Assembly: GCA_049667605.1 (NCBI GenBank)
Contig: JBATIF010000204.1
Coordinates: 1 to 58,281 of the forward strand
Length of the DNA: 58,281 nucleotides
Direction of reading: 5' to 3'
DNA from: Gammaproteobacteria bacterium
GTDB lineage: Bacteria > Pseudomonadota > Gammaproteobacteria > UBA9214
The notes below the pieces were generated by a model. It saw nothing but the letters and a program-made list of their open reading frames with translations. It was not told where the DNA came from and did no database searches. Position 1 is the first letter of the stretch, and each line of letters starts with the position of its first letter. Below, piece after piece: positions 4,110 through 58,010 of the stretch. Made by a program: the position numbers and the translations under genes.

Positions 4110-6386
4110 ATGGCTAAGACATATGGAGAATGGCTGGTCCGCTGGAAGATTCCCGTCCTGCTGGTGTCTTTGCTGCTGGTGGCCCTGGCCGGCAGTGGCG
4201 TCAGGTTTCTTCAGTTCAAAACCGACTACCGGATGTTCTTCAGCGAAGACAATCCGCAGATGCAGGCATTTGAGCAGCTGCAGAACACCTATACCAAAAC
4301 AGACAATGTGTTATTTGTGCTTGCACCAAAAGACGGGCGGGTGTTTACCCCGGAAACCCTCGCAAGTGTCGCCTGGCTGACTGAGGCCTCCTGGCAATTA
4401 CCTTATTCCATCCGCGTCGACTCGATTAGCAACTACCAGCACACCCGGGCAGAAGAAGATGACCTGGTTGTTGACGACCTTGTGCCGGATGCGGCAAATA
4501 TTGATGCTGCAGGTCTTCAGTCCATCCGCGACATCGCCATTAACGAGCCGCTGCTTGTTCATCGCCTGATCGCACCTGATGGCCGGGTCACCGGTGTCAA
4601 TGTAACCATCCAGCTACCTGATAACGGCAGCGGCGAGGAAGTGCCGGAAGTAACTGCGTTTGCACGCGATCTTGTCGAGCAGGTAAAGGCCGGGAATCCG
4701 AACCTGGATGTTTACCTTACCGGCATGGTCATTATGAATAACTCCTTCCCCGAGGTCAGTATTCGTGATCAGCAAACCTTGATTCCGATGATGTTTGCAG
4801 TCGTCATCCTGACACTTCTGCTGCTGCTGCATTCGTTTACGGCTGCGCTCGCCACTTTTTTTGTAATTGTTTTTTCCATAGTGGCTGCCATGGGTCTGGC
4901 TGGATGGCTGCGAATCCCGCTGACACCACCGTCAGCCTCTGCACCCACAATTATCCTGACCCTTGCAGTGGCTGACTGCGTGCATGTGCTCATCAGCTTG
5001 TTGCATGACATGCGCAGGGGGCTGGATAAGACCTCCGCCATCATCGACAGCCTGCGGATCAACCTTCAGCCGGTTTTTCTGACAACATTGACGACAGCCA
5101 TCGGTTTCATGAGCATGAACTTCAGCGATGCGCCGCCGTTTCGTGACCTGGGCAATATTGTTGCCATGGGTGTCGGCATTGCTTTTGTTCTATCCGTGGG
5201 CTTTCTCCCTGCGCTGATGCTGTGCCTGCCTGTGCGCGTAAAGGTTGGTGAGACTCGGCGTGCACGGGCGATGGACCGTCTGGCAGAGACTGTTATTAAA
5301 CAGCGCAATTACCTGTTCTGGGGAATGGGTTTTATCGTTATTGGCCTGGTAATCTTTATCCCGCGCAATGAATTAAATGACGAGTTTGTCAAATACTTTG
5401 ACACCTCAGTTGACTTCAGGAATGCAACCGATTTCGCAACCAGCAACCTGACCGGCGTCTATACAATTGATTATTCGCTCGGTACGGGTGAGAGCGGGGG
5501 CATCAGTGAGCCGGATTTTCTCAGGGATGTTGATCGCTTTGCGGAGTGGTACCGGCAACAGCCCGGTGTGCTGCACGTCAATACACTGACCGACATAATG
5601 AAGCGTTTGAACAGGAATATGCATGGCGATGACCCGCAATGGCATCGCTTGCCTGGTCAGCGCGATCTGTCGGCACAGTACCTGCTGCTCTACGAGATGT
5701 CCCTGCCCTATGGACTTGACCTGAATAACCAGATCGATATCGGCAAAACCGCCACGCGCATGACGGTCTCCCTGGAGAGTGTCTCAACCAACGAAATGCT
5801 TGCCCTTGATCAAGAAGCACAGGCCTGGCTGGGAGAAAATGCACCTCATATGAAGACTGACGGGGCAAGTCCGTCTGTCATGTTTGCACATATCGGCTAT
5901 CGAAATATCCGCAGCATGTTAACGGGCACGACAATCGCCCTGGTACTGATATCCGTGGTGCTGGTTATTGCGCTGCGCTCTGTCAAAATAGGCCTGGTAA
6001 GCCTGGTGCCGAACCTGATCCCTGCGGCCATGGGCTTCGGACTGTGGGGTTTGCTGGTGGGGGAGGTGGGGCTGGCACTTTCAGTGGTTACCGGTATGAC
6101 CCTGGGTATCGTGGTCGACGATACTGTGCATTTTCTCAGCAAGTACCTGCGCGCAAGGCGTGAGCAGGGCCTGCATTCCGCCGACGCCGTGCGCTACGCC
6201 TTCTCTACGGTTGGTATGGCGTTGTGGGTGACATCGTTTGTACTGATCGCCGGTTTCATGGTCCTGACCCAGTCGGCCTTCAAACTGAATGCCGACATGG
6301 GCCTGCTTACAGCCATCACTATCGGTTTTGCTCTTATAGCTGACTTCCTTTTTCTTCCGCCGCTGTTGATGAAAATCGATAAATAG
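4110..6386 (+). CDS. RND-superfamily exporter, MMPL/HpnN-like (COG1033 type)
   Basis: The 758-aa protein has two repeated halves. Each half has one N-terminal TM, a large soluble loop and a 5-TM bundle (SSD-like blocks LTLAVADCVH..., GIVVDDTVHFLSKY). This is the typical MMPL architecture. Confidence 0.85.
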   Translation: MAKTYGEWLVRWKIPVLLVSLLLVALAGSGVRFLQFKTDYRMFFSEDNPQMQAFEQLQNTYTKTDNVLFVLAPKDGRVFTPETLASVAWLTEASWQLPYSIRVDSISNYQHTRAEEDDLVVDDLVPDAANIDAAGLQSIRDIAINEPLLVHRLIAPDGRVTGVNVTIQLPDNGSGEEVPEVTAFARDLVEQVKAGNPNLDVYLTGMVIMNNSFPEVSIRDQQTLIPMMFAVVILTLLLLLHSFTAALATFFVIVFSIVAAMGLAGWLRIPLTPPSASAPTIILTLAVADCVHVLISLLHDMRRGLDKTSAIIDSLRINLQPVFLTTLTTAIGFMSMNFSDAPPFRDLGNIVAMGVGIAFVLSVGFLPALMLCLPVRVKVGETRRARAMDRLAETVIKQRNYLFWGMGFIVIGLVIFIPRNELNDEFVKYFDTSVDFRNATDFATSNLTGVYTIDYSLGTGESGGISEPDFLRDVDRFAEWYRQQPGVLHVNTLTDIMKRLNRNMHGDDPQWHRLPGQRDLSAQYLLLYEMSLPYGLDLNNQIDIGKTATRMTVSLESVSTNEMLALDQEAQAWLGENAPHMKTDGASPSVMFAHIGYRNIRSMLTGTTIALVLISVVLVIALRSVKIGLVSLVPNLIPAAMGFGLWGLLVGEVGLALSVVTGMTLGIVVDDTVHFLSKYLRARREQGLHSADAVRYAFSTVGMALWVTSFVLIAGFMVLTQSAFKLNADMGLLTAITIGFALIADFLFLPPLLMKIDK

Positions 6387-6532
6387 GTTTTATCCTTGCG
6401 GGCGAGGCACTCTTCTTTATTGCGCTAACTTGCAGGGGCCAGCGCCAGCTGGCGAGGTGTTTGCGAGCTGTCGCTCGCTCCTGCAGAATAATCAAGAGGA
6501 AGTACGTGACCCGCCATGGTGAAGCCGCTTGC

Positions 6533-7051
6533 CTAGCGGATTTCTTCAATAGATAACTTTTTCTCCATGACCATCGGCGTGATCAGTGCATGGCCTTGCA
6601 GTTGCCAATGGGCCAGTTCGGTGATCGCCGACGGGACCACGTCTATGAATTCATAAAAGTCGCCGGTTGCATAACCATAGTCTTCTGCTGCCATACCGCA
6701 CACCTTGAATTCCACGCCCAGGCTTGCGTAATAACGCATGCGCTCTACAGCATCCCGGTATTTCTCATAGTTCTTGCGGGCAACGGTGACAATCTCCGTG
6801 CCATGGATTACGACCTTGATATCCATGAACTCGGGTGCCAGCCCGTAGGGCTCAGCCATCAGGGGGTTGACCAGTGAACGAATCCAGAAGAGGGCGGAAT
6901 TGATTTTCTGCGGGTCGTCCAGGTAAAAATCATAGACGACTTTTTGTTCGGTGTAGGGAGTTTCAACCAGTTTAGATACTTCTTCGTCCGCCGGCAGGGA
7001 ATGGCAGAGCAGCAATGTGATTACAATGAAGAGGGCCTTTAGTGGCTGCAT
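6533..7051 (-). CDS. DsrE/DsrF-like family protein with N-terminal signal peptide
   Basis: The KVVYDFY...IKVVIHGTEI...VEFKVCGMAAE pattern fits the DsrE-fold family. ATG at 7051 (MQPLKALFIVITLLLCHSLPA) is preceded by GGAG at good spacing. The longer ORF to 7078 is less likely. Confidence 0.7.
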   Translation of the reverse strand: MQPLKALFIVITLLLCHSLPADEEVSKLVETPYTEQKVVYDFYLDDPQKINSALFWIRSLVNPLMAEPYGLAPEFMDIKVVIHGTEIVTVARKNYEKYRDAVERMRYYASLGVEFKVCGMAAEDYGYATGDFYEFIDVVPSAITELAHWQLQGHALITPMVMEKKLSIEEIR

Positions 7052-7178
7052 ATTTCGACTCCAGCGCTGTGTTGTCACTTCCCAACTATAGTCTATTCAC
7101 GGCTCTATTGTTGCCTGCAGCCGATATCCACCCGCTCAGGGTGAATATTTACCGGGGTATAAAAAATTCAGGCCCGCA

Positions 7179-8312
7179 TCAGGCTGCAGAGGCGACAGCA
7201 GTACGATGGGCTTCGCAAAGCGCCAGGCGTTTCTCATAGGCCTCCCGGGCTACCCTGATATCGTCCAGAAAATACCCCAGTTCATTCATGCGCAAGGCCT
7301 GTGGCCCGTCCACCAGGGCCTTGCTCGGTACCGGATGGAAATCAACCAGCACCATGTTGGCGCCTGCGATCACACCTTGTGCCGTTACATGAAAGACATC
7401 GAGGATACCTTCCGGTGTAGAGTCACGGCTGCCTACCGAGTGTGATGGATCAATACAGACCGGCATGCGCGTCAGGCGCTTGACGACCGGAACGTGGGCA
7501 AAATCGATAAAATTGCGATGCGGGTCGCCCATGTTGGTCTTCATGCCACGCAGACCGAACACCACGCGCCGGTTGCCTTCACTGGCGAGATATTCCGCGG
7601 CATTGAGTGATTCTTCCAGGGTGATACCAAAGCCGCGTTTCAGCAGCACCGGGAAATCCGGGTCACGCCCGATCGACTTGAGTAATTCGAAGTTCTGCGT
7701 ATTGCGGGTGCCGATCTGCAGCATCACGCCGGTCGGGTTGCCGGTCAGTTCCAGGGCTTCATGGATCTCGGCGACATGCGAGTCGTGGGTGACTTCCATG
7801 GCAACGACTTTTATATCGTATTTTCCGGCGAGCTCGAAAACAAAAGGCAGGCAGCTCTTTCCATGACCCTGGAAAGAGTAGGGGTTGGTGCGCGGCTTGT
7901 ATGCGCCCATGCGGGTGCATTGCTGGCCATGCTCCTTCAATGCCTTCATCATTTGTTCGACATGTTCGGGATTGTCTACCGCGCAAAGACCGGCGAATAC
8001 GTTCAGGTTATCCTGGCCGAAGCGGATACCGTTGTAATCAAAGTGCGTGGGGCGCACATCATCATGATGGCGTCCGAGTACACGGTATTCCTCTGATACG
8101 CGCACAACGCGGTCTACACAGGGCAGGCTCTGCATATCCTCGATTATCAGTGAAGCCGTATCTCCGACCAGGTAGATTTCGGTGAGGGTTTGCAGGATGC
8201 CTTTTTCGTCATGCACGCGCGACTGAATATTTTTCAGGTGCGACAGGAAATCCATCAACTGCCGATATTCGGACCCGTCCTTATCAGTGTCGGCGTGCAA
8301 AATCAGGATCAT
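7179..8312 (-). CDS. 3-deoxy-7-phosphoheptulonate (DAHP) synthase, type I-beta, with N-terminal ferredoxin-like regulatory domain
   Basis: The protein has the KPRTNPYSFQG motif and a (beta/alpha)8 core (GLRGMKTN..., CIDPSHS). About 90 aa of N-terminal extension resemble the Thermotoga-type regulated enzyme. Confidence 0.88.
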   Translation of the reverse strand: MILILHADTDKDGSEYRQLMDFLSHLKNIQSRVHDEKGILQTLTEIYLVGDTASLIIEDMQSLPCVDRVVRVSEEYRVLGRHHDDVRPTHFDYNGIRFGQDNLNVFAGLCAVDNPEHVEQMMKALKEHGQQCTRMGAYKPRTNPYSFQGHGKSCLPFVFELAGKYDIKVVAMEVTHDSHVAEIHEALELTGNPTGVMLQIGTRNTQNFELLKSIGRDPDFPVLLKRGFGITLEESLNAAEYLASEGNRRVVFGLRGMKTNMGDPHRNFIDFAHVPVVKRLTRMPVCIDPSHSVGSRDSTPEGILDVFHVTAQGVIAGANMVLVDFHPVPSKALVDGPQALRMNELGYFLDDIRVAREAYEKRLALCEAHRTAVASAA

Positions 8313-9167: not shown

Positions 9168-10235
9168 ATGGCCGGTTTTCAGCCAGTGGGCAAATATAAC
9201 AGGGGTGTGGCCATTTCCAGGCGTATAAACCATCGTTTTTCCGTGGCGCCCATGATGGACTGGACGGATCGTCATTGTCGCTATCTACTGCGTCTGGTTA
9301 CTGCAGATACCCTGTTGTATACCGAGATGGTGACTACACATGCCCTGTTGTACGGCGACAGGGACCGTTTCCTCAGGTTCAATAGTCCTGAACACCCGCT
9401 AGTCCTGCAGCTCGGTGGTAGCGATCCGCTTGCGTTGGCTGAGTGCGCGCGCCTTGCAATGGAATACGGCTATGACGAGATCAACCTGAATGTCGGCTGC
9501 CCCAGTGACCGGGTTCAGTCGGGCCGCTTTGGCGCATGCCTGATGGCCGAACCCGGACTGGTGGCTGATTGTGTCGCGGCAATGCAGGATGCCGTGGCGC
9601 TCCCGGTGACCGTCAAGTGCCGTACCGGGATTGATGAGCGGGATTCGTATGAAGAGCTTGCCGGATTTATCCGCACGGTCAGTAATGCCGGCTGCGGCAC
9701 CTTTATCATCCACGCGCGCAAGGCCTTTCTGCAGGGCTTGAGCCCGAAGGAAAACCGCACAGTCCCGCCCCTGAACTACGATTATGTCTACCGGATCAAG
9801 CAGCAATTTCCGGGTCTTGAAATAATAATAAATGGTGGTATCCGTGATCTGGATAGTGCGCAAGCCCATTTAGGACAGGTCGATGGCGTGATGCTTGGCA
9901 GGGTGGCCTATCATGAACCCTATATGCTGGCCGGGGTTGATGCACGTTTCTACGGCGCCGCGCAAAAGCCCCGCGGGCGTGAGGAGATTGTTCACCAGAT
10001 GCTGGCATACATCGAAGCGGAACTTGCAGCGGGTACACTGCTCAAACACATCACCCGCCATATGCTGGGCCTGTTTGCCGGTGAACCGGGTGCCAGGCAC
10101 TGGCGGCGCTATCTGGGCCAATACGCACACAAGCCGGGGGCGGGCACCGAGGTAGTGCTTGAAGCGCTCGAAATCGTTTCTCAATTCAGCAAGGCTGCAG
10201 CAGCAAAATCAGGGTGCGTTCAACAGCATGGATGA
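9168..10235 (+). CDS. dusA: tRNA dihydrouridine(20/20a) synthase DusA
   Basis: The RFSVAPMMDWTDRHCRY signature and FMN TIM-barrel motifs (NLNVGCPS, VKCRTG, IIHARKA) are present. The start is uncertain: the ORF opens at GTG 9111, and the ATG at 9168 is listed. Confidence 0.9.
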   Translation: MAGFQPVGKYNRGVAISRRINHRFSVAPMMDWTDRHCRYLLRLVTADTLLYTEMVTTHALLYGDRDRFLRFNSPEHPLVLQLGGSDPLALAECARLAMEYGYDEINLNVGCPSDRVQSGRFGACLMAEPGLVADCVAAMQDAVALPVTVKCRTGIDERDSYEELAGFIRTVSNAGCGTFIIHARKAFLQGLSPKENRTVPPLNYDYVYRIKQQFPGLEIIINGGIRDLDSAQAHLGQVDGVMLGRVAYHEPYMLAGVDARFYGAAQKPRGREEIVHQMLAYIEAELAAGTLLKHITRHMLGLFAGEPGARHWRRYLGQYAHKPGAGTEVVLEALEIVSQFSKAAAAKSGCVQQHG

Positions 10236-47680: not shown

Positions 47681-49057
47681 TTACCTGGAGATTGCCGCAT
47701 CGGGCTGCTCACCGACCGATGTATTCTCAGGTGTATCGTCAGGAGTGTCTTCAGGTGTGTCGTCCGGATCGACCTCGGCAGCCGGCTCCGATGATAATGA
47801 CGTATTGGCTCTTTGCATGATCCGGTGGATGCGTGTTCCCATGGTTTGATGGTCCACGGCCGAGTTCTTGCGCAGGACATTCGAGATCAGCGTAGCGATG
47901 TAATGCAGCGGGCGAGCTTCGTTGAAGCTTTCAATGATCGCGACCGAGTTCATGTAGTTCTTTTTGTTACCCATGTACTTGCCGCATTTGAAACCTTCTT
48001 CCTCCTGGCAGCTGTAGAGGGAACCGGATTTGAAATACACGGCCGAGTCCCGCAGTGCCGGGGCTGAGGCATAGCGAATACGCCGCTCGGTCATGTAGAG
48101 CAGGCGCTTCATCTCGCGGCTGGAAAACTCGTCCACCAGCCGGCCCTGTTCCATGCGCAGGGTGAATAACATCAGTTCCCGGGCCGTGCCGTAGCTGTTG
48201 CCGCCGCCGGCTACCTTGTTCTTGCCGGTGCGCGTAAAAAAGCTTCCTTGGCGCAAAAGGTTGATATCCAGACCGTTACGGGTAATCGGCTCGAAGAAGG
48301 TGGCCTGGAACAGTGCGGTGAGTTCCTTTCTCGGGGTTTCCTTGAAGAACCGCTGGATCTCCTCTTCAGGTGGCGGGTAGCTTTTGCCGTAATGCTTGAG
48401 CAACATGGCATCGCGCATGGTCATGGCAGCCGCGGCATTGGAACTGACGGACAGGGTCCAGTCGAGATATTCCCAGAGCGATCCGCGGTCACCATCCTTC
48501 ATGGTTCGCCGTGTCAGTTTTTGCGTCTCGACATCGAACAGGCGGATCTTGTGATGGTCCCAGTGACAGAATTCATCAGCGGTAATGTACGTGTTCTTCA
48601 GGATACCCCGGCGCTTTGCAAGGTCGTCCGGCCAGGCATCGGCGAGCGCCTGGAACAGGCCAAGTGCCACGACTATTTTGCCGACACTGCCGACATTCTG
48701 TTTGTAATCACCGCGATGCTCGGCATAGCGAGGATTTTCCGGGTCGCTCAAATCGAGTACGGCGATGCCGTAACGGCTGGCATTGTTTCCCAGCAAATTC
48801 AGGATTTCCCGATTCAACTCAGGGTCGGGGGCGGGAAGATCAATATCGGGGTAATTCAGCAGACGCAGGTCCACTTCTGCCGTTGAAAGCTGTGCGCCCG
48901 GAGGCTGCTTGCGACCGCGTATAATGCCTTCATTTTCGAGACGGGCGCCTTCTACCCGCCGGATACCGGTTTCCGCGTAACCATCCAGTGGATAGGCCGT
49001 CACCAGGGAAGGGATGCCGAGCACCAGCAAAAGCGGCACTGCCAGGTATTTAATCAT
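47681..49057 (-). CDS. exported class A beta-lactamase-fold serine hydrolase with acidic repeat tail
   Basis: A signal peptide is present (LLLVLGIPSLVTA). SVGK, SSN and KSG motifs are present. The C-terminal tail reads PDDTPEDTPDDTPENT. The start overlaps the upstream stop (ATGA). Confidence 0.75.
   Translation of the reverse strand: MIKYLAVPLLLVLGIPSLVTAYPLDGYAETGIRRVEGARLENEGIIRGRKQPPGAQLSTAEVDLRLLNYPDIDLPAPDPELNREILNLLGNNASRYGIAVLDLSDPENPRYAEHRGDYKQNVGSVGKIVVALGLFQALADAWPDDLAKRRGILKNTYITADEFCHWDHHKIRLFDVETQKLTRRTMKDGDRGSLWEYLDWTLSVSSNAAAAMTMRDAMLLKHYGKSYPPPEEEIQRFFKETPRKELTALFQATFFEPITRNGLDINLLRQGSFFTRTGKNKVAGGGNSYGTARELMLFTLRMEQGRLVDEFSSREMKRLLYMTERRIRYASAPALRDSAVYFKSGSLYSCQEEEGFKCGKYMGNKKNYMNSVAIIESFNEARPLHYIATLISNVLRKNSAVDHQTMGTRIHRIMQRANTSLSSEPAAEVDPDDTPEDTPDDTPENTSVGEQPDAAISR
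47729..47776. repeat. four imperfect 12-nt tandem units inside a CDS
   Basis: The units are AGGTGTATCGTC / AGGAGTGTCTTC / AGGTGTGTCGTC / CGGATCGACCTC. On the minus strand they encode the D(D/E)TP repeats. Confidence 0.8.
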
Positions 49058-51993
49058 CGTGGTATCTCCTGCATTGTTACATTCTGATCAAGACGGCCTG
49101 CCAGTGCCTTGTCCATGCTATTAAGGTAACTGCTGCCCCGGGCCTGCTTGCTTTCCAGGAACGGGCGTAATTGAAACAGGTGCAGTTTGCCGTTCAGAAA
49201 ACCGAATTCAACATCCGCTGGTGCCGGCTTGCCTTCATCATCCGTAATCGAGGGAAACTTTTGCGGCAGTTCCTTTGCAAACTGTATGAGCTGCCTGATC
49301 TCGCCCGGCTGTAACACCGTATCACTGCCGCTGGTCGGGACCTTCTCGACGCCACCGCTGGCTATCGGGTTGCGTCGCCATGGGGCAGTTGCCATTGCCA
49401 GTACCCGCACCGAGCCATCGCGCATATCGATGCGTAGGGATTCAGCCGACTGGCCATCGACCGCGCCACCGACCCCTTCATTGACGGCGACTGATAGCAC
49501 CGCGCGGTCACCCGTATCAATGTCCTGGGTCACCATAACGCCGGACTTGTCATTCGATACCGACTGCAGCAACAGCACGGCAGGGTAGACATGTTCCGGT
49601 GTATCCATGTGCGACTGCCGCCATGCAAAGGCGCGTGCCGTGAACGGTGATGCCCAGACCCGCGGGATGGCGTTGATGACGTTATCCACCCCGATTACAT
49701 TCGGCAGGGTCAGGTTCAGACCAGCGCCGGTAAAACCGGCAAGGTCTTCCACGTTGGTGTCAGACCGTACAAACACGCCATAGCTACCGGTACCGAAGGC
49801 CTGGTTCATCGCCTTGCGCAGTCCACTTCTGAACGTATCATCAAGCTTTGCCGATGCAATCCGTTTGTACACCTCGGCACGGAAGCGTTCGGTAAATTCC
49901 AGCCTTTGCGTTGAGTCCTCCGGCATTGTCTGCATTTTACGATACTGCTCGACCATCCATTCGAAGACAGTCTTGCCCGTACCATCGTAGGGCTTGTCCA
50001 GCACTGTTTCCCGGAACACGCCAAAAGGAATGGCTACACCCTGGGCCACGGCGTCAGGATAGGCGTGACGCAATTCACCGAGCTTTGCGGCCTTTGGGCC
50101 GACAACGCGTCCGGAGTCATCCGCACGCAGCATGTCCAGGTTAAGGAAGTCCTTGACGGACAGGTCGAGTTTCTCCAGATCCGGCCTGATGACAGCAGCG
50201 CCCGCCTGGTTGTCCTTGCCAAACACTGCATCCCAGTTGGCACCATCCGGACCCAGTTCAACCAGTCCCGCGGGGCTGACAGCCATCACCACGGCCTGGC
50301 CGTCATGCTTGCGTATGGATGGAATCAGTTCCTCGTCCACGCCCACGTTGGGTATACCCAGGTTGCGCGCCAGCAACTGAACATGCGACAGGGGATTGCC
50401 TTCACCGGCCGTCATGATGCCCGCAACCGGCGGAAGCTCGGAGATGGTTTCCGGCAACAGGTAGATACCATGTGCCTCAAATCCGGCATGTTCATCGAGG
50501 TCCGGGGTGGCATGCAGCACGCCGCGTGCCAGTCCCGGGTTGAGGGCGCGGAAGCCGACACCGATTTCCTTGCCAAAGAGTTTGTGCTCGACACCCGCCA
50601 GGCGGTTTGCATCCTGCAGCAGTCCATCGAGGATTTGCGAATAAAACAGCAGCGGGCTGCCACGTAACTGGTCCTGGATGAAAAGTAACGCCAGTGGTTC
50701 GATCTCGGCCAGCTTGTCCATGGATTCATAGAACTGGAAACGCAGGCCCTGGGTCCCCCAGCCGGGCACCCGCCCGAGGTAGCCGAGCGTTTTCATATAA
50801 TCTGCAAGCGAAATACTTGAACCGGCAAGTGAGTCAAGGGAAGCAAGCAATTCACCTTGACCCCTGCGGTTGATACTGCCGGTTCCATAGGCGGCGTTGA
50901 CGGTCGCCTTCAGCCACTCGACACGTTGATGTCGTGTTGCCTTTGGCAGTCTTGAACGCAGGTCTGCGCTGGCACTGAAATTCACAGTCTCAACCGCAAG
51001 GCCCAGGTCGAGTATCCGTAACCGGGCTGCTGCACTTTTTATCCTGGGTAGCACATCACGCAATTCGGCCAGCAGGCCGGCCGTCACCGCGTATTGGTGA
51101 TCGGCTGACGGGTCCTTATTCAGCTGCTGTGCGGCCGAGCGCAGGATCTTTTGCAACCAGGGGCCCGCGGAAAACACCTCGGCAGTTGCATTGAGCTGCT
51201 CGGGTAACGGGGCAGACTGGTAAACCCGGTCAATGTCACTGGCAAGGATTTCGTATTTTTTCCTGAGTGCCGGATCGCTGGTTCCAGCCGCGTAATCGCG
51301 AACCAGCTTTGCATCACTTGCTTCCGGGGTACCGTGGATCTTGCCGCGGATATCCTTGAAGCCCTTGTCCTCTTCTGACAGTGAAGCCGAGAACTGGCGG
51401 ACCTTCTGGACGGAGGCGGTGTCCTCGCCATGCGGCAACAAGCCCACACCGATGCGCAGGGCCGGGTAACGAAAACCAATCCAGACCGGGTCTGCCGCCA
51501 GGGTCAGCAACAGGTCCCGACCGCCGTTACGCTCGTCTTCTTCCTGGATGGCACCCCGGTAGAAGAGGGCACGACGCCATATCCAGCCATCGTCCATCCG
51601 TATCAGGAATTTTTCGATCAACAGCTGGTTATAGGCGTCGAGGAATTCAGGCGAATTTATGTCAACATCGGTTTTATACCCGGCCAGTAAATTTGCAATC
51701 AGGTAGCCCTCATCCCTCAGCTTCCTGGTCTTGTCGCTCCATGAACCATGCTGATGGCCGCCGCCATGTTCGACACAGGCATATTCCCTGGGTGGTAGTA
51801 TGGATCCGTCATTACAGAACCAGCGTAACTCCTTGAAAGGACCCCTTTCACGGACCTTCATTTCATTGATCCAGCGCCGGTGTTCGGTGTTGTCTCCAGC
51901 CGCGGCCGCAGTGTTATCCGATGAGGCGGGAGCGCCTGCTGATATCCAAATGCCGAAGGCGAACAATATTGTTTTTATTAATCGAATTTTCAT
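49054..51993 (-). CDS. PEP-utilising / ATP-grasp (PPDK_N-like) dikinase-family protein with N-terminal signal peptide
   Basis: The N-terminus reads MKIRLIKTILFAFGIWISAGAPASS. A ~470-aa domain of unknown function follows. Next comes a swivelling phosphohistidine motif (GIMTAGEGNPLSHVQLLARNLGIPNV). An ATP-grasp PEP/pyruvate-binding-like region follows (VGPKAAKLGEL, VRSDTNVEDLAGFTGAGLNLT, DVEFGF..GKLHLFQLRP). Confidence 0.72.
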   Translation of the reverse strand: MKIRLIKTILFAFGIWISAGAPASSDNTAAAAGDNTEHRRWINEMKVRERGPFKELRWFCNDGSILPPREYACVEHGGGHQHGSWSDKTRKLRDEGYLIANLLAGYKTDVDINSPEFLDAYNQLLIEKFLIRMDDGWIWRRALFYRGAIQEEDERNGGRDLLLTLAADPVWIGFRYPALRIGVGLLPHGEDTASVQKVRQFSASLSEEDKGFKDIRGKIHGTPEASDAKLVRDYAAGTSDPALRKKYEILASDIDRVYQSAPLPEQLNATAEVFSAGPWLQKILRSAAQQLNKDPSADHQYAVTAGLLAELRDVLPRIKSAAARLRILDLGLAVETVNFSASADLRSRLPKATRHQRVEWLKATVNAAYGTGSINRRGQGELLASLDSLAGSSISLADYMKTLGYLGRVPGWGTQGLRFQFYESMDKLAEIEPLALLFIQDQLRGSPLLFYSQILDGLLQDANRLAGVEHKLFGKEIGVGFRALNPGLARGVLHATPDLDEHAGFEAHGIYLLPETISELPPVAGIMTAGEGNPLSHVQLLARNLGIPNVGVDEELIPSIRKHDGQAVVMAVSPAGLVELGPDGANWDAVFGKDNQAGAAVIRPDLEKLDLSVKDFLNLDMLRADDSGRVVGPKAAKLGELRHAYPDAVAQGVAIPFGVFRETVLDKPYDGTGKTVFEWMVEQYRKMQTMPEDSTQRLEFTERFRAEVYKRIASAKLDDTFRSGLRKAMNQAFGTGSYGVFVRSDTNVEDLAGFTGAGLNLTLPNVIGVDNVINAIPRVWASPFTARAFAWRQSHMDTPEHVYPAVLLLQSVSNDKSGVMVTQDIDTGDRAVLSVAVNEGVGGAVDGQSAESLRIDMRDGSVRVLAMATAPWRRNPIASGGVEKVPTSGSDTVLQPGEIRQLIQFAKELPQKFPSITDDEGKPAPADVEFGFLNGKLHLFQLRPFLESKQARGSSYLNSMDKALAGRLDQNVTMQEIPR

Positions 51994-52048: not shown

Positions 52049-52079
52049 AAAAACAGGGGGCCGGCAGCATCAGGCCGGC
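52049..52079 (-). terminator. possible rho-independent terminator
   Basis: On the minus strand, GCCGGC-CTGATGCT-GCCGGC is followed by CCCCTGTTTTT. The T-run is not immediately adjacent to the stem. Confidence 0.4.
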
Positions 52080-52872: not shown

Positions 52873-53132
52873 TAAACAAAGATGCCTTTGGCTGGTTCTT
52901 CTTTAGGGTAAATATAACCAGACTGCTTAACGACATAAATATTGTAATATTACTACATATTGTGACATGCGACCTAAGACATCCTACATTTAGTAGCTGC
53001 AAAGCCACCGGCGTCGGTCAGTGATTCTCATGGCAGGGCGAATTAGATGCTACGGCACGGGAAAAGTTGCTGGCAGGCAAATAATGGCACTCATGTTACA
53101 CTTTGCCAGATAACCCTATTTCACTGAAACAC

Positions 53133-56100
53133 ATGAAAAAAATCACTGAATTACTGGATGAGCGCATTCTCTTCCTGGATGGCGCCATGGGAACCATGAT
53201 CCAGCGTCACAAGCTGGAGGAGGCGGATTACCGTGGTGAGCGCTTCGCCGACTGGCCCTCGGACCTGAAGGGTAACAATGACCTGCTGAGCCTGACCCGG
53301 CCCGGGGTCATCCGCGAAATCCATACGCAGTACCTGGAGGCGGGCGCGGATATCATCGAGACCAACACCTTCAACTCGACGCGTGTTGCCATGGCCGACT
53401 ATGGCATGGAGGAGCTGTCCTTCGAAATCAATGTCGCCTCGGCACGGCTTGCCCGCGAGGCGGCAGATGAACTGAGCGCAAAAACACCTGACAAGCCTCG
53501 CTTCGTCGCCGGTGTACTGGGTCCAACCAACCGTACGGCCTCGATATCCCCCGACGTCAACGACCCGGGTTTCCGTAACATTTATTTTGACGAACTGGTC
53601 GATGCCTACACCGAGTCTGTCCGCGCCCTGATTGAGGGTGGCGTCGATATCATCCTGATCGAGACCATATTCGATACCCTGAACGCAAAGGCCGCGGTTT
53701 TTGCCGTTGAACAGCACTTTGAGGACTCGGGCAGCCGCTTGCCGGTGATGATTTCCGGCACCATCACCGATGCCTCCGGTCGTACACTGACCGGACAGGT
53801 AACCGAGGCGTTCCTCAATTCATTGCGCCATGCAAGACCGCTGTCTATCGGACTCAACTGTGCACTCGGTGCTGACCAGTTGCGCCAGTACGTCGAGGAA
53901 CTGTCTCAGCTTGCTGATATGCGTATCTCGGCACATCCAAATGCCGGTCTACCGAATGAGTTTGGCGAATACGATGAAACCCCGCAACACATAGCCGCAG
54001 AACTGGGTGACTGGGCCGCCAACGGCTTTCTGAATATTGTCGGTGGCTGCTGCGGCACCACGCCGGATCACATCAGGGCAATCGTCGCGGCGGTTAGTCC
54101 ACATCCGCCGCGCCAGGTGCCCGTCATAGAAAAACAATGCCGCCTGTCGGGGCTTGAACCCTGCAACATCGGCAGCGACAGTCTTTTCGTCAATGTCGGC
54201 GAGCGTACCAATGTCACCGGCTCGGCGCGCTTCAAGCGCCTTGTCATGGAAGGCGATTACGAGACCGCACTGGCTGTTGCGCGCGAGCAGGTTGAAAACG
54301 GTGCGCAGATCATCGATATCAACATGGATGAGGGCATGCTCGAGTCACGGGACGCCATGGTGCGCTTTCTCAACCTGGTTTCAGCAGAACCGGATATTTC
54401 CCGCGTACCGGTCATGATTGACTCATCCAAGTGGGAGATCATTGAAGCCGGGCTGAAATGCATACAGGGGAAAGGTGTTGTGAATTCCATCAGTCTCAAG
54501 GAGGGTGAAGCGGAGTTTATCCACCATGCAAAACTGGTGCAGCGCTACGGTGCCGCCGCGATTGTCATGGCCTTCGATGAAAAAGGCCAGGCCGATACCC
54601 AGGCCCGTAAGGTCGAAATTTGCACACGCGCCTATGGGATACTGACTGAAAAAGTCGGCTTCAACCCGGAAGATATTATTTTCGATCCGAATATTTTTGC
54701 GATTGGCACCGGCATCGAGGAACACAACAACTACGGAGTTGATTTCATTGAGGCAACCCGTGAAATAAAGGAAAAACTGCCCTATGCACTGGTCTCCGGC
54801 GGGGTTTCCAATGTTTCATTTTCATTCCGCGGCAATAACCCGGTACGCGAGGCAATTCACTCGGTATTTCTCTTTCACGCCATCAAGGCCGGTATGGACA
54901 TGGGCATCGTTAACGCCGGGCAACTGGCAATCTACGAAGAGATCCCTGCCGCGCTGCGCGAGCGTGTTGAAGATGTCGTACAGAACCGCCGCGAAGATGC
55001 GACAGAACGCCTGCTGGATATCGCCGCTGAATATGCAGGTGATGGCAAAAAAGTCATTGCGGAAGATCCGGCATGGCGCCAGTGGGAGATCAACAAGCGC
55101 CTGGAACATTCACTGGTCAAGGGCATTGCGGATTTTATCGAGGACGATACCGAGGAAGCCCGGCTTGCGGCGCTGCGGCCACTGGACGTGATTGAAGGCC
55201 CCCTAATGGACGGGATGAATGTAGTTGGCGACCTGTTCGGGGCCGGCAAGATGTTTCTGCCACAGGTGGTCAAATCCGCACGTGTCATGAAAAAGGCGGT
55301 GGCCTACCTGCTGCCTTACATGGAAACGGGCAAGGATGAAGAGGTGCAGACCAATGGCCGCATCCTGATGGCGACTGTCAAGGGTGACGTACACGATATT
55401 GGCAAAAATATCGTCGGCGTCGTGCTGCAGTGCAACCGTTACGAGGTCATCGATCTCGGGGTTATGGTGGCGGCTGAAACCATTCTGAAAACGGCACGTG
55501 AGAAAAATGTCGATATCATTGGCTTGTCTGGGCTGATTACGCCATCACTGGACGAGATGGTTCACCTTGGCAAGGAAATGCAGCGCCAGGGCTTTACCAT
55601 ACCACTTATGATCGGTGGTGCAACGACTTCACAAATACACACCTCGGTAAAGATAGACCCGCAGTACAGCGGGGCGGTGGTTTATGTCCCCGATGCCTCC
55701 CGCGCTGTCGGCGTTGCCAGTGCGTTGTTGAGCAAGGACAAGCGCGAGGCCTACATCGCCGGAATCAAGGAAAAATATCTGCAGCTGCGTGAGCAGCGTG
55801 CCGGCCAGCAGCAGTCACGCCAGTTCGCCACACTTGCAGAGGCACGCACCAACAAGTTCAGCACCGACTGGAGCAACTACCAGCCAGCCAAACCGGTGTT
55901 ACTGGGTATGAAGGTGTTCGATGACTATCCCCTGGCCGAACTGGTGTCGCATATCGACTGGAGCCCGTTTTTCAAGGCGTGGGAGCTGGCTGGCAAATAT
56001 CCAAAAATTCTCGATGATGAAGTCGTCGGCAAGGAGGCTACCCGCCTGTTCAGTGATGCACAGGCCATGCTGGAGAGGATTGTCAGTGAGAAATGGCTGC

Positions 56101-56807
56101 AGGCCCGCGCCGTCATTGGCATTTTTCCTGCCAATTCCATCGATGACAGTGACGTGGAAATCTTTACGGATGACACGCGCGGTGAAGTGCGGACCGTTTT
56201 CCATTTCCTGCGCCAGCAGATGAAACACCGCAACCAGGCCCCCAACTACAGCCTGGCCGATTACATTGCGCCGAAAGAGTCCGGGGTAAAGGATTACATG
56301 GGTGCGTTTGCAGTCACTGCAGGTATCGGTATCGAAGAGAAGGTTGCAGAGTTCGAGGCCGACCATGATGATTACAACAGCATCCTGCTGAAAGCACTTG
56401 CAGACCGGCTCGCCGAGGCCTTTGCCGAACGCATGCATGAGCGCGTACGCAAGGAATTCTGGGGATATGCAACGGCTGAAAATCTGAGCAATGAAGAATT
56501 GATCAAAGAGCAGTACCGCGGCATCCGCCCGGCGCCAGGATACCCGGCTTGTCCCGATCATACGGAGAAAGGCCTGCTCTGGGAGCTGATTGACCCGGCT
56601 GCAAATGCAGGTATGACCCTCACCGGGAGTTTTGCCATGTTGCCCACGGCCTCGGTTTCCGGTTTCTACTTTTCCCACCCGGAAGCCCGCTATTTCGGTA
56701 TCGGCAAGCTGGCACGCGACCAGGTCGAGGCCTACGCACAGCGCAAGGGCATGAATATCGCGGAAGCCGAGCGCTGGCTGGCGCCCGTCCTTGGTTATGA
56801 CACCTAG
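53133..56807 (+). CDS. metH: cobalamin-dependent methionine synthase
   Basis: All modules are present: Hcy-binding ([11 protein letters not shown]), pterin-binding, B12-binding ([11 protein letters not shown]) and the AdoMet activation domain. ATG at 53133 ([21 protein letters not shown]) is preferred over TTG at 53103. Confidence 0.97.
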
Positions 56808-56879: not shown

Positions 56880-58010
56880 ATGAGATCATCAACATTCAAG
56901 GCGGCCTGCGCCCGTGGCGAAACATGGCAGTCGGTTATCGATCAGTGCCTCGTAAATCTTGGCACAGAGCCGTCCTCAGCCAACCTGGGGCTGCTGTACC
57001 TGACAGAAGCGCTGGCTCCCTACCTGGATAACCTGGTTGAATATTTGCGCAAGGAAACAGGCATCACCGACTGGGTTGGTACGGTCGGCAGTGGCATCTG
57101 CTACAGCAACCTGGAGATTTACGAAGAGCCGGCAGCCGTTGTTATGCTGGCCACATTGCCCGCGGACAGCTATCGTCTGATTCCCTCGGGGCTGGAAGCA
57201 CTGGCCGACATGCTTGGCAAGAACAAAAACTGGATAGCCGAGCACTCCGCGCATTTCTGCATCGTTCATGGTGATCCGCGTAATACCCATATCGCACAAT
57301 TGATCGAGTCCCTCTCGGCAGAGCTGGACCCCGGTTTTCTCGTCGGCGGCCTGTCTTCTGCCGCCAATGAAGACCTCCAGTTCCAGGTGGCCGGTGAGAT
57401 CTATGAGTATGGGCTGTCGGGTGTGCTGTTCTCCTCTGAAATCCGGGTGATAAGCGCAGTGACCCAGGGCTGCACGCCACTGGGACAGAAGCACATGATT
57501 TCCGGGTGCCAGGGCAATATCGTCGCTGAACTCGATGGCAGACCGGCGCTGGAAGTCTTCAAGGAGGATGTCGGGGAGGTTCTTGCAAAGGATCTTTCAC
57601 GTGTGGCCGGTTATATCTTTGCCGGGTTGCCGGTGAGCGGGTCTGACACCGGCGATTACCTGGTACGCAACCTGATCGGCATCGATCCGGAGCAGCAGCT
57701 GCTGGCCATCGGAGACAACCTCGAGGAAGACGCGACCATCATGTTCTGCAAGCGGGACGGCGACACGGCTCGCGAGGATATGATCCGCATGTTGCAGGAC
57801 CTTAGAAAACGCACCACGGGTGAGATCAGGGGCGGGGTGTATTACAGCTGCCTTGGACGTGGTCGCAACCAGTTCGGAAATAATTCCGAAGAATTAAAGC
57901 TGATCCACGAACAGCTTGGCGACTTTCCGCTGGTCGGGTTCTTCGCCAATGGCGAGATTTCACATAACCGTCTGTATGGTTATACCGGGGTTTTGACGTT
58001 GTTCTTGTAG
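56880..58010 (+). CDS. FIST N/C domain-containing sensory protein
   Basis: The 376-aa protein has no TM segment. Its overall pattern (GLLYLTE...VGTVGSG... / GGLSS... / FFANGEI near the C-terminus) matches stand-alone FIST proteins. Confidence 0.65.
   Translation: MRSSTFKAACARGETWQSVIDQCLVNLGTEPSSANLGLLYLTEALAPYLDNLVEYLRKETGITDWVGTVGSGICYSNLEIYEEPAAVVMLATLPADSYRLIPSGLEALADMLGKNKNWIAEHSAHFCIVHGDPRNTHIAQLIESLSAELDPGFLVGGLSSAANEDLQFQVAGEIYEYGLSGVLFSSEIRVISAVTQGCTPLGQKHMISGCQGNIVAELDGRPALEVFKEDVGEVLAKDLSRVAGYIFAGLPVSGSDTGDYLVRNLIGIDPEQQLLAIGDNLEEDATIMFCKRDGDTAREDMIRMLQDLRKRTTGEIRGGVYYSCLGRGRNQFGNNSEELKLIHEQLGDFPLVGFFANGEISHNRLYGYTGVLTLFL

Follow-up and report, generated by a model that had tools for sequence, protein, structure and literature searches.

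Can a nucleotide-dependent phosphotransferase of the His-swivel type work outside the cytoplasm, and what would then serve as its phosphoryl donor? The question is raised by DIK, a gene for a predicted exported, dikinase-like protein on contig JBATIF010000204.1 of assembly GCA_049667605.1 (Gammaproteobacteria bacterium), of which the whole stretch of 58,281 nucleotides, hereafter the window, has been analysed. A preliminary description of this DNA had read DIK as an exported protein with a phosphohistidine and an ATP-grasp domain in permuted order, and had asked which extracytoplasmic donor such a protein could use. The overall reading is supported by the present analysis with two corrections, one concerning the domain order and the other a Cys/His cluster. 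The main new result is the neighbourhood of the gene, a conserved cassette of envelope proteins, which suggests an undescribed ATP-driven extracytoplasmic reaction. The His-swivel dikinase type itself is already known; new in DIK are the predicted compartment, the presumed acceptor domain and the cassette. Literature searches returned no paper on the DIK family, nor on any exported or periplasmic dikinase.

Export signal and domain architecture of DIK

DIK is a genuine, strongly conserved gene. A word-indexed search returned at least 1288 homologues, the best 120 of which are nearly all full length with 66-100% identity, and a HMMER search of 50%-identity clusters gave 4672 matches at E<0.001 and 453 at E<1e-30, with full-length ones (~950-1000 residues) reaching down to 31% identity. 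All the segments quoted in the preliminary description have been located in the translation: MKIRLIKTILFAFGIWISAGAPASS at residues 1-25, CNDGS...ACVEHGGGHQHG at 60-83, GNPLSHVQLLARNLGIPNV at 532-550 (confirmed by re-translation), VRSDTNVEDLAGFTGAGLNLT at 742-762 and DVEFGF..GKLHLFQLRP at 927-944. The relatives are named in their sources “hypothetical”, “PEP/pyruvate-binding domain-containing protein” or “phosphoenolpyruvate synthase”. Orthologues are present in the cultured Flavobacteriaceae Muricauda sp. MAR_2010_75 (locus L092, JQNJ01000001.1) and Lacinutrix sp. WUR7 (locus L093, CP045067.1), at 10001..~18000, which makes experiments feasible; further ones were found in Formosa, Nonlabens, Bizionia and Portibacter. 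For these flavobacterial proteins the label “phosphoenolpyruvate synthase” is a misannotation, seemingly a systematic one, because they lack the PEP/pyruvate domain and possess a signal peptide.

The N-terminus of DIK has the n-h-c form of a signal peptide (Table 1), as had been noticed from the window sequence, and a heuristic count now indicates that this form is a family trait. The 351 full-length members examined present the following features: (i) a hydrophobic core, beginning at about residue 8, in 341; (ii) a net positive n-region in 316; (iii) an AXA-like site in 272; (iv) an apolar run of mostly 8-17 residues, after which the next 15 residues are net negative. It is the form and not the sequence that is kept family-wide, conservation beginning at ..YRQWI..MK..RGPF..(I/L)RWFC.DG.., i.e. 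in the mature part. The other soluble products of the cassette, described below, possess signal peptides (BLAL, BLAS, SP242) or a lipobox (APH). Judged by these features, DIK is very likely an exported protein.

A cytoplasmic body, and thereby an ordinary cytoplasmic ATP-using dikinase, would result from a translation start at M45 or from an uncleaved N-out/C-in anchor. M45 is close to invariant, and a small number of database gene models begin there (e.g. P0115, P0133, P0168). However, the frame upstream of M45 is open in practically every member and includes an ATG and a signal-like peptide, and the conservation of Y38 and W41 in this part implies that translation starts upstream of M45; the internal start was therefore rejected. 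The purine-rich stretch GAGAAAAGAG directly upstream of the annotated ATG of DIK argues in the same direction. As to the anchor, the apolar run is too short for one, and the positively charged n-region with the net-negative residues behind it predicts an N-in/C-out orientation by the positive-inside rule, so that even an uncleaved signal would leave the body outside. With all the soluble cassette partners bearing an export signal too, a cytoplasmic DIK is hardly credible.

The mature part opens with the Cys/His cluster to which the preliminary description had drawn attention. C60 and C73 are the sole cysteines of the mature window protein and both are invariant in two samples of the family, the first comprising 78 relatives with 30-73% identity to the query and the second 47 further-spread sequences. 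In the 78-sequence alignment H82 is nearly invariant, whereas H76 and H80 vary. Because these two histidines vary and the cysteine pair does not, a loop closed by a disulphide is preferred over a metal site, and the conservation pattern makes a C60-C73 disulphide probable. The cluster thus stands as two invariant cysteines and one nearly invariant histidine, and its reading as a metal-binding site, which fits less well, was set aside.

The AlphaFold2 model of DIK, built on a 73-sequence alignment (pLDDT 76.9, pTM 0.72), is composed of an N-terminal helix representing the signal, a beta unit, helices at residues ~108-465, an alpha/beta His domain at 470-582 and an ATP-grasp domain at 630-945. 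The two domains recognised in the preliminary description are both borne out by profile searches. PPDK_N (PF01326) matches residues 630-953 with E=1.2e-25 and 91 bits (cut-off 27), covers profile positions 3-317 of 328 and is present in all 47 diverse family members; the ATP-grasp region is complete and retains its ATP and Mg residues. In a Foldseek search of the whole model against the PDB, the ATP-binding domain of RPH, the rifampicin phosphotransferase, comes first (E~1e-12, TM 0.78 on target), followed by PEP synthase (PEPS) and HpeI, all matches being confined to the ATP-grasp part. The DIK family profile likewise matches PEPS and RPH entries of the PDB in this part, with E down to 7e-38.

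The PEP-utilizers profile (PF00391) matches residues 512-556 with E=4e-4 and 20.3 bits, and the isolated His region with E=9e-5 and 22.4 bits, which is still below the cut-off of 23.1. It was detected at E<=0.01 in 29 of the 47 diverse members (best E 6e-6), and residues 482-543 align to the His domains of PPDK and Enzyme I when the family profile is compared with the PDB; the assignment of this mobile domain is firmer at the family level than in the window protein alone. The positions of the two Pfam matches place the His domain N-terminal to the ATP-grasp domain, in agreement with the earlier reading. Pfam scans gave no match in DIK to the PEP/pyruvate TIM barrel (PF02896).

The N-terminal ~470 residues had been left without an assignable family, and so they remain in the Pfam, PDB sequence and PDB fold searches. 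The family profile of residues 34-470 has no match among PDB sequences, Pfam scanned up to E=10 yields DUF3319 alone, at chance level, and the AlphaFold2 model of residues 34-472 (pLDDT 75.8) finds nothing better than E=1.3 and TM<=0.17 in a Foldseek search of the PDB. The helical domain of this region is presumed to bind the acceptor. Its residues W137, R146, G147, Q150, E154, H220 and G372 are invariant in both the 78- and the 47-sequence samples.

In the 78 relatives the invariant residues of the His and ATP-grasp domains are H537, K634, R743, S744, D745, T746, N747, E749, D750, T762, D927, E929, Q941 and R943, and the wider sample of 47 repeats this invariance. The context of the catalytic histidine, H537, is accordingly kept among homologues. 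In the HMMER alignment to RPH-Lm, R743 corresponds to Arg117, T762 to Thr136, E929 to Glu297 and Q941/R943 to Gln309/Arg311; K634, within GPKAAKLGEL, is equated with Lys22 by motif (GPK vs GGK) and not by the printed alignment. In RPH, mutating Lys22, Arg117 or Thr136 abolished rifampin resistance; no activity in vitro remained in the Lys22Ala variant, those altered at Arg117 or Thr136 transferred no phosphate to rifampin, and Glu297 coordinates Mg2+ although E297A is still active (PMC4844700). Since the catalytic residues are invariant and match functional residues of RPH, DIK looks like an active protein and not a degenerate relic, and a working His/nucleotide enzyme is the likely reading of its sequence.

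The order of domains is indeed reversed with respect to PEPS, PPDK and RPH, as first described, but it is not unique, for the same order is usual in the glucan,water dikinases of plants and algae (GWD; PMC13553574). StGWD1 consists of CBM45 modules, a 20-helix central domain without PDB equivalent, a link of 4 residues to the His domain and a C-terminal ATP-binding domain, with a His domain pivoting from the ATP site to the central domain and back (PMC13553574). GWD1 and PWD thereby share with DIK the succession of helical acceptor domain, phosphohistidine domain and C-terminal ATP-grasp domain, the ~21 helices of DIK running straight into its His domain. The chemistry predicted for DIK is also the same, the beta-phosphate passing to the histidine and on to the acceptor and the gamma-phosphate to water, and the GWD pathway includes hydrolases, a phosphatase and product transporters, paralleling the DIK cassette. 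There are differences as well. CBM45 and CBM20 were not found in DIK by Pfam scans up to E=10; the GWD1_pHisD profile reaches only E=0.054 in DIK and E<=0.01 in two of 47 members; DIK is bacterial and predicted to be Sec-exported, whereas GWD is plastid stromal; and DIK is partnered by beta-lactamase-fold peptidases, GWD by amylases. The GWD central-domain entries 9HA9 and 9QVI were absent from the PDB sequence and Foldseek matches of DIK, although they may postdate the libraries searched. Because the specific sequence evidence is weak, DIK is classed as a protein that would work like the GWD core without belonging to the GWD family. Architecturally, the DIK family is the closest bacterial counterpart of the plant GWD catalytic core, which bears on the origin of the starch-phosphorylating enzymes.

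Among the other His-swivel enzymes, RPH-Lm (PDB 5HV1, 5FBS; PMC4844700) is the best sequence and structure match to the ATP-grasp domain; it yields AMP and Pi, and the counterparts of its K22, R117, T136 and E297 are conserved in DIK. It differs in its order (ATP-grasp, RIF-binding domain, C-terminal His domain), its cytoplasmic location and its unrelated acceptor domain. PEPS and PPDK share with DIK the PPDK_N and PEP-utilizers domains as well as the histidine motif of catalysis ((T/L)SH), but DIK lacks their C-terminal TIM barrel, has the reversed order and is predicted to be exported. The NCBIfam models reflect these distances: RPH (NF041857) gives 80.7 bits against a cut-off of 999, and the PEPS models 31-103 bits against cut-offs of 598-1063 (e.g. 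103 vs 883). These matches, as well as that of the PigC model, which like RPH stays far under its cut-off, cover the ATP-grasp part only. The split dikinases, HpeHI (PDB 9GOJ) and phenylphosphate synthase, show that ATP-grasp and His modules can phosphorylate acceptors other than pyruvate, and HpeI is among the structural matches of DIK; unlike DIK, they are cytoplasmic, multi-subunit and act on aromatic acceptors. A precedent for a signal-peptide-bearing, ATP-dependent enzyme in Gram-negative bacteria is Lig E, with a fold and chemistry unrelated to DIK; the part of its literature consulted mentions no dedicated nucleotide carrier.

Genes of the DIK cassette and their recurrence

The start of BLAL overlaps the stop of DIK by 4 nt, with DIK as the first gene of the pair, and the two are translationally coupled. 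BLAL immediately follows DIK in 53 of the 61 loci with 1.5 kb or more of downstream sequence, including loci in which DIK is 31-39% identical to that of the window. The second hydrolase, BLAS, recurs in 32 of the 40 loci flanked by 9 kb or more. Both are predicted serine hydrolases of the beta-lactamase fold (Table 1). Compared with the PDB, the single BLAL sequence has no match and its family profile gives E>=0.06; for BLAS the single sequence has no match either, and the family profile finds as its best entry Tll2115 (2j7v; E=3e-8), which we take to be the PBP-A protein of Thermosynechococcus. DIK quite probably forms a functional unit with BLAL and BLAS.

A third recurrent element is a carrier. 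Two genes of the window encode NTT-like carriers. The first, NTT-HEAT, matches the TLC profile (PF03219) with E=5e-14 and 52.5 bits (cut-off 21), over profile positions 259-477 only, and also matches ADP,ATP carriers of the PDB (9j3n, E=3e-9; 9j3j, E=1e-6). By sequence it is a member of the NTT/TLC family, and nucleotide transport is its predicted function. NTT-HEAT fusions are widespread in free-living bacteria and their substrate has never been determined (PMC5381601). The NTT-HEAT and NTT-HEAT-cNBD architectures of that study recur in the window neighbour of DIK and in its counterparts from Flavobacteriaceae and locus L010; the study gives neither a function nor a gene-neighbourhood link, and the tie to an exported ATP-grasp enzyme is new here. 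Literature searches found no paper connecting NTT-HEAT proteins with an ATP-grasp enzyme and no relevant later work on them. The second gene, O463, has no Pfam or NCBIfam match, but hhalign relates its family to the NTT domain of the NTT-HEAT family with a probability of 100% and E=2e-53. Its homologues stand beside DIK in many loci (38-89% identity), and it seems to represent a subfamily of NTT-like carriers for which no model exists.

Elsewhere the carrier is SDF-SBP3, a fusion of ~730 residues joining a sodium:dicarboxylate symporter (PF00375) to a family-3 solute-binding domain (PF00497), which is not encoded in the window. It takes the place of the NTT-like gene in loci L047, L052, L055, L058 and L082 and accompanies O463 in about 20 others. 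Among 41 loci of at least 12 kb, an NTT-like gene was found in 27, SDF-SBP3 in 15, one or the other in 34 and both in eight. Of the seven loci with neither, only L005, L007 and L009 are adequately flanked, as L001 and L014 end inside NTT-HEAT and L017 and L033 are short on the downstream side. The SDF-SBP3 loci led to the rejection of the NTT-like carrier as a universal partner of DIK.

NTT-like homologues were identified beside DIK in loci L002, L003, L006, L008, L010, L011, L080, L092 and L093, and the arrangement differs from one to another. Locus L006 (DIK 39% identical) reads DIK, BLAL, opposite-strand BLAS and then TLC; L008 (31%) reads DIK and BLAL, followed by opposite-strand NTT-HEAT and BLAS, its 890-residue gene product matching the window NTT-HEAT with E=4e-30; L010 (34%) starts with an opposite-strand NTT-HEAT-cNBD, followed by DIK, BLAL and opposite-strand BLAS, and adds a metallo-beta-lactamase-fold gene; L011 (43%) is formed from DIK, TLC and BLAS. 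In Muricauda sp. MAR_2010_75 and Lacinutrix sp. WUR7 the order is DIK, BLAL, then opposite-strand NTT-HEAT and BLAS, at identities to the window proteins of 31-32% for DIK, 41-42% for BLAL, 34-38% for BLAS and 27-28% for the NTT protein. The G+C content of DIK loci ranges from 33% to 66%. The cassette is conserved across phyla, from Gammaproteobacteria to Flavobacteriaceae, despite its shuffled order and orientation.

The gammaproteobacterial subset of loci additionally contains APH, whose score against TIGR01533 (199.5 bits) is slightly under the cut-off of 216. Just upstream of DIK in two related loci (L047, 7505..9722; L055, 2..1786), a DAO-family FAD oxidoreductase resembling D-amino-acid dehydrogenase is encoded together with a LysR regulator, a hint of D-amino-acid metabolism in these two loci and not in general.

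Table 1. Coordinates of DIK, its domains and the associated genes (positions refer to the window unless another locus is named)
Feature	Position	Strand	Remarks
DIK, predicted exported His-swivel/ATP-grasp dikinase-like protein	49054..51993	-	ATG-initiated ORF, 979 aa
Signal peptide of DIK, aa 1-25	51919..51993	-	n-region MKIRLIK; h-region TILFAFGIWISAG (13 aa); c-region APA, predicted cut before SS
Small beta unit of DIK, aa 45-95	51709..51861	-	motif MK..RGPF..(I/L)RWFC.DG...C..GGG.QHG; AlphaFold2 strands 53-60, 79-85
All-helical domain of DIK, aa ~108-465	50599..51672	-	~21 helices; AlphaFold2 secondary structure
Phosphohistidine swivel domain of DIK, aa 470-582	50248..50586	-	PF00391, PPDK His-domain profile match
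Codon of H537	50383..50385	-	
ATP-grasp nucleotide-binding domain of DIK, aa 630-953	49135..50106	-	PF01326
BLAL, predicted exported beta-lactamase-fold serine hydrolase, 458 aa	47681..49057	-	PF13354 E=5e-6; SxxK, SxN, KSG conserved
NTT-HEAT, NTT/TLC-type carrier homologue with C-terminal HEAT-like region, 724 aa	45425..47599	+	PF03219 TLC
BLAS, predicted exported PBP-A/class-A beta-lactamase-like serine hydrolase, 310 aa	44184..45116	-	PF13354 E=2e-14; SxxK, SxN, KSG conserved
APH, e(P4)-family class C acid phosphatase/5'-nucleotidase lipoprotein, 277 aa	43162..43995	-	PF03767 E=2e-37; lipobox LTGC; DLDET motif
O463, multi-pass membrane protein, divergent NTT-like carrier, 463 aa	41757..43148	+	hhalign to NTT domain family
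SP242, predicted exported protein upstream of DIK, 242 aa	52144..52872	-	signal peptide visible
Terminator-like hairpin between SP242 and DIK	52060..52079	-	six G-C pairs and T-rich tail; consensus match only
SDF-SBP3, examples	L047 15296..17485; L058 15198..17396; L065 ~4950..7179		in about 25 other loci besides L047, L058

Proposed reaction and competing explanations

The preferred reading, to which we give an even chance, is that DIK, the lead gene of the envelope cassette, encodes a periplasmic “X,water dikinase”, possibly fuelled via NTT-like carriers. By homology to the known enzymes, MgATP would bind to the ATP-grasp domain and H537 would attack the beta-phosphate, AMP leaving and the gamma-phosphate being freed as Pi. 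The His domain would then swing to the N-terminal helical domain and hand the phosphate to a bound acceptor X, so that the overall reaction in the periplasm would be X + ATP + H2O -> X-P + AMP + Pi. BLAL and BLAS would act on the same substrate as DIK; the linkage of two PBP-A/class-A acyl-serine hydrolases to DIK points to a D-Ala-D-Ala-type or cell-wall-derived peptide compound as the probable one. In the lineage of the window, APH could remove AMP or the phosphate of the product, and SDF-SBP3 suggests the import of an amino-acid- or dicarboxylate-like product. Cytoplasmic ATP would be brought to DIK by NTT-HEAT and O463. These carriers are the candidate answer to the donor question raised in the preliminary description, yet ATP delivery is the weakest step of the scheme and is put forward tentatively, with the balance slightly against it. 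A still fuller version, a “polymer or peptide, water dikinase” system that would run on ATP in the periplasm and follow the logic of starch phosphorylation, is improbable as a whole. In it, NTT-HEAT and O463 would export ATP, the GWD-like DIK would phosphorylate a cell-wall-derived or D-amino-acid peptide, possibly peptidoglycan, and this would prime the substrate for both PBP-A/beta-lactamase-fold hydrolases, after which the e(P4)-type phosphatase would clear AMP or the phosphate mark and SDF-SBP3 would take up the product.

Several points weigh against the preferred reading. The periplasm is conventionally held to be ATP-free, and the NTTs characterised so far are known as ATP/ADP exchangers, whereas the nucleotide left by a dikinase is AMP. 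Export is called from heuristic criteria and from comparison within the family, the PF00391 score of the window protein falls slightly short of the Pfam cut-off, and the acceptor domain has no recognisable relative in the Pfam and PDB searches. Adjacency to an NTT gene is not universal, since L005, L007 and L009 possess neither carrier type within 10 kb. Furthermore, SDF-SBP3 resembles an amino-acid/dicarboxylate importer, so the NTT-like carriers could import too, the transport substrate of NTT-HEAT never having been determined (PMC5381601).

This last point opens the way to an explanation in which DIK is exported and active, but the NTT-like and SDF-SBP3 carriers import the product of the pathway instead of delivering ATP. 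The donor would then be environmental or released nucleotides, another NTP, polyphosphate, or a phosphorylated substrate used in a PPDK-like reverse reaction. The occupation of the carrier slot by SDF-SBP3, an uptake symporter with a solute-binding domain, in the five loci named above fits such import, as do the DAO-type dehydrogenase and LysR genes of L047 and L055, which suggest catabolism of an amino-acid-like product; neither NTT-HEAT nor O463-type carriers have an established substrate that would contradict it. The ATP-site residues of DIK, however, are invariant and match those of the ATP-using RPH and PEPS. Moreover, NTT-like genes are rare in genomes, yet they recur in 27 of the 41 long loci, across phyla and in shuffled order, and the 5'-nucleotidase-family phosphatase of the cassette fits periplasmic nucleotide turnover. 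We regard product import as rather unlikely, although a more serious contender than a unit for antibiotic resistance or detoxification, made up of an RPH-like periplasmic phosphotransferase and two beta-lactamase-family enzymes. RPH provides the solved structures nearest to the ATP-grasp domain, the cassette holds two PF13354 proteins, and locus L010 adds its metallo-beta-lactamase-fold gene. Resistance is nevertheless very improbable: the family occurs widely and is maintained across phyla, and mobile elements are few at most of its loci; the BLAS profile is nearer to Tll2115, the PBP-A protein, than to typical beta-lactamases; DIK has no NCBIfam resistance-family match and neither the RIF-binding domain nor the domain order of RPH; and a frequent partner is an amino-acid-type symporter.

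Should the dikinase reading hold, its consequences would reach beyond this locus. An abundant, cross-phylum family, predicted to be exported and with an intact ATP site, that stands beside nucleotide-carrier homologues challenges the view of an ATP-free periplasm and, if the scheme is true, would imply a regulated ATP supply to the periplasm of Gram-negative bacteria. It would also provide the NTT-HEAT fusions of free-living bacteria with their first function; in any case a testable role is offered for proteins whose function there has been open since 2017 (PMC5381601). The link to PBP-A/beta-lactamase-fold proteins points to a new step in envelope or D-amino-acid peptide metabolism of marine and sediment bacteria.

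Lineage-specific and unrelated neighbours

The C-terminal tail of BLAL (47681..47800, reverse strand) consists of an acidic Thr-Pro repeat (..DPDDTPEDTPDDTPENT..). Relatives do not conserve it, and it may be a disordered linker or tail.

Loci L007 and L009 sit among mobile and defence genes, namely DruA, a reverse transcriptase and transposases in L007, and BrxL and PglZ in L009; in L007 the position of BLAL is taken by AAA_14/DUF4143 genes. An anti-phage role of the cassette was excluded, as PADLOC gave no match for any cassette protein, and the defence genes near these two loci look coincidental.

SP242 occurs upstream of DIK in close relatives only, which indicates a lineage-specific accessory gene; its product has a low-complexity middle rich in Gly, Met, Pro and Trp, a beta-rich C-terminus and no Pfam match. 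The window cassette is flanked by genes for a MetH-like cobalamin-dependent methionine synthase of 1234 residues (53103..56807, forward strand) and for a protein with FIST N and C domains (56880..58010, forward strand). Both are syntenic with the cassette in close relatives only and are apparently unrelated to it.

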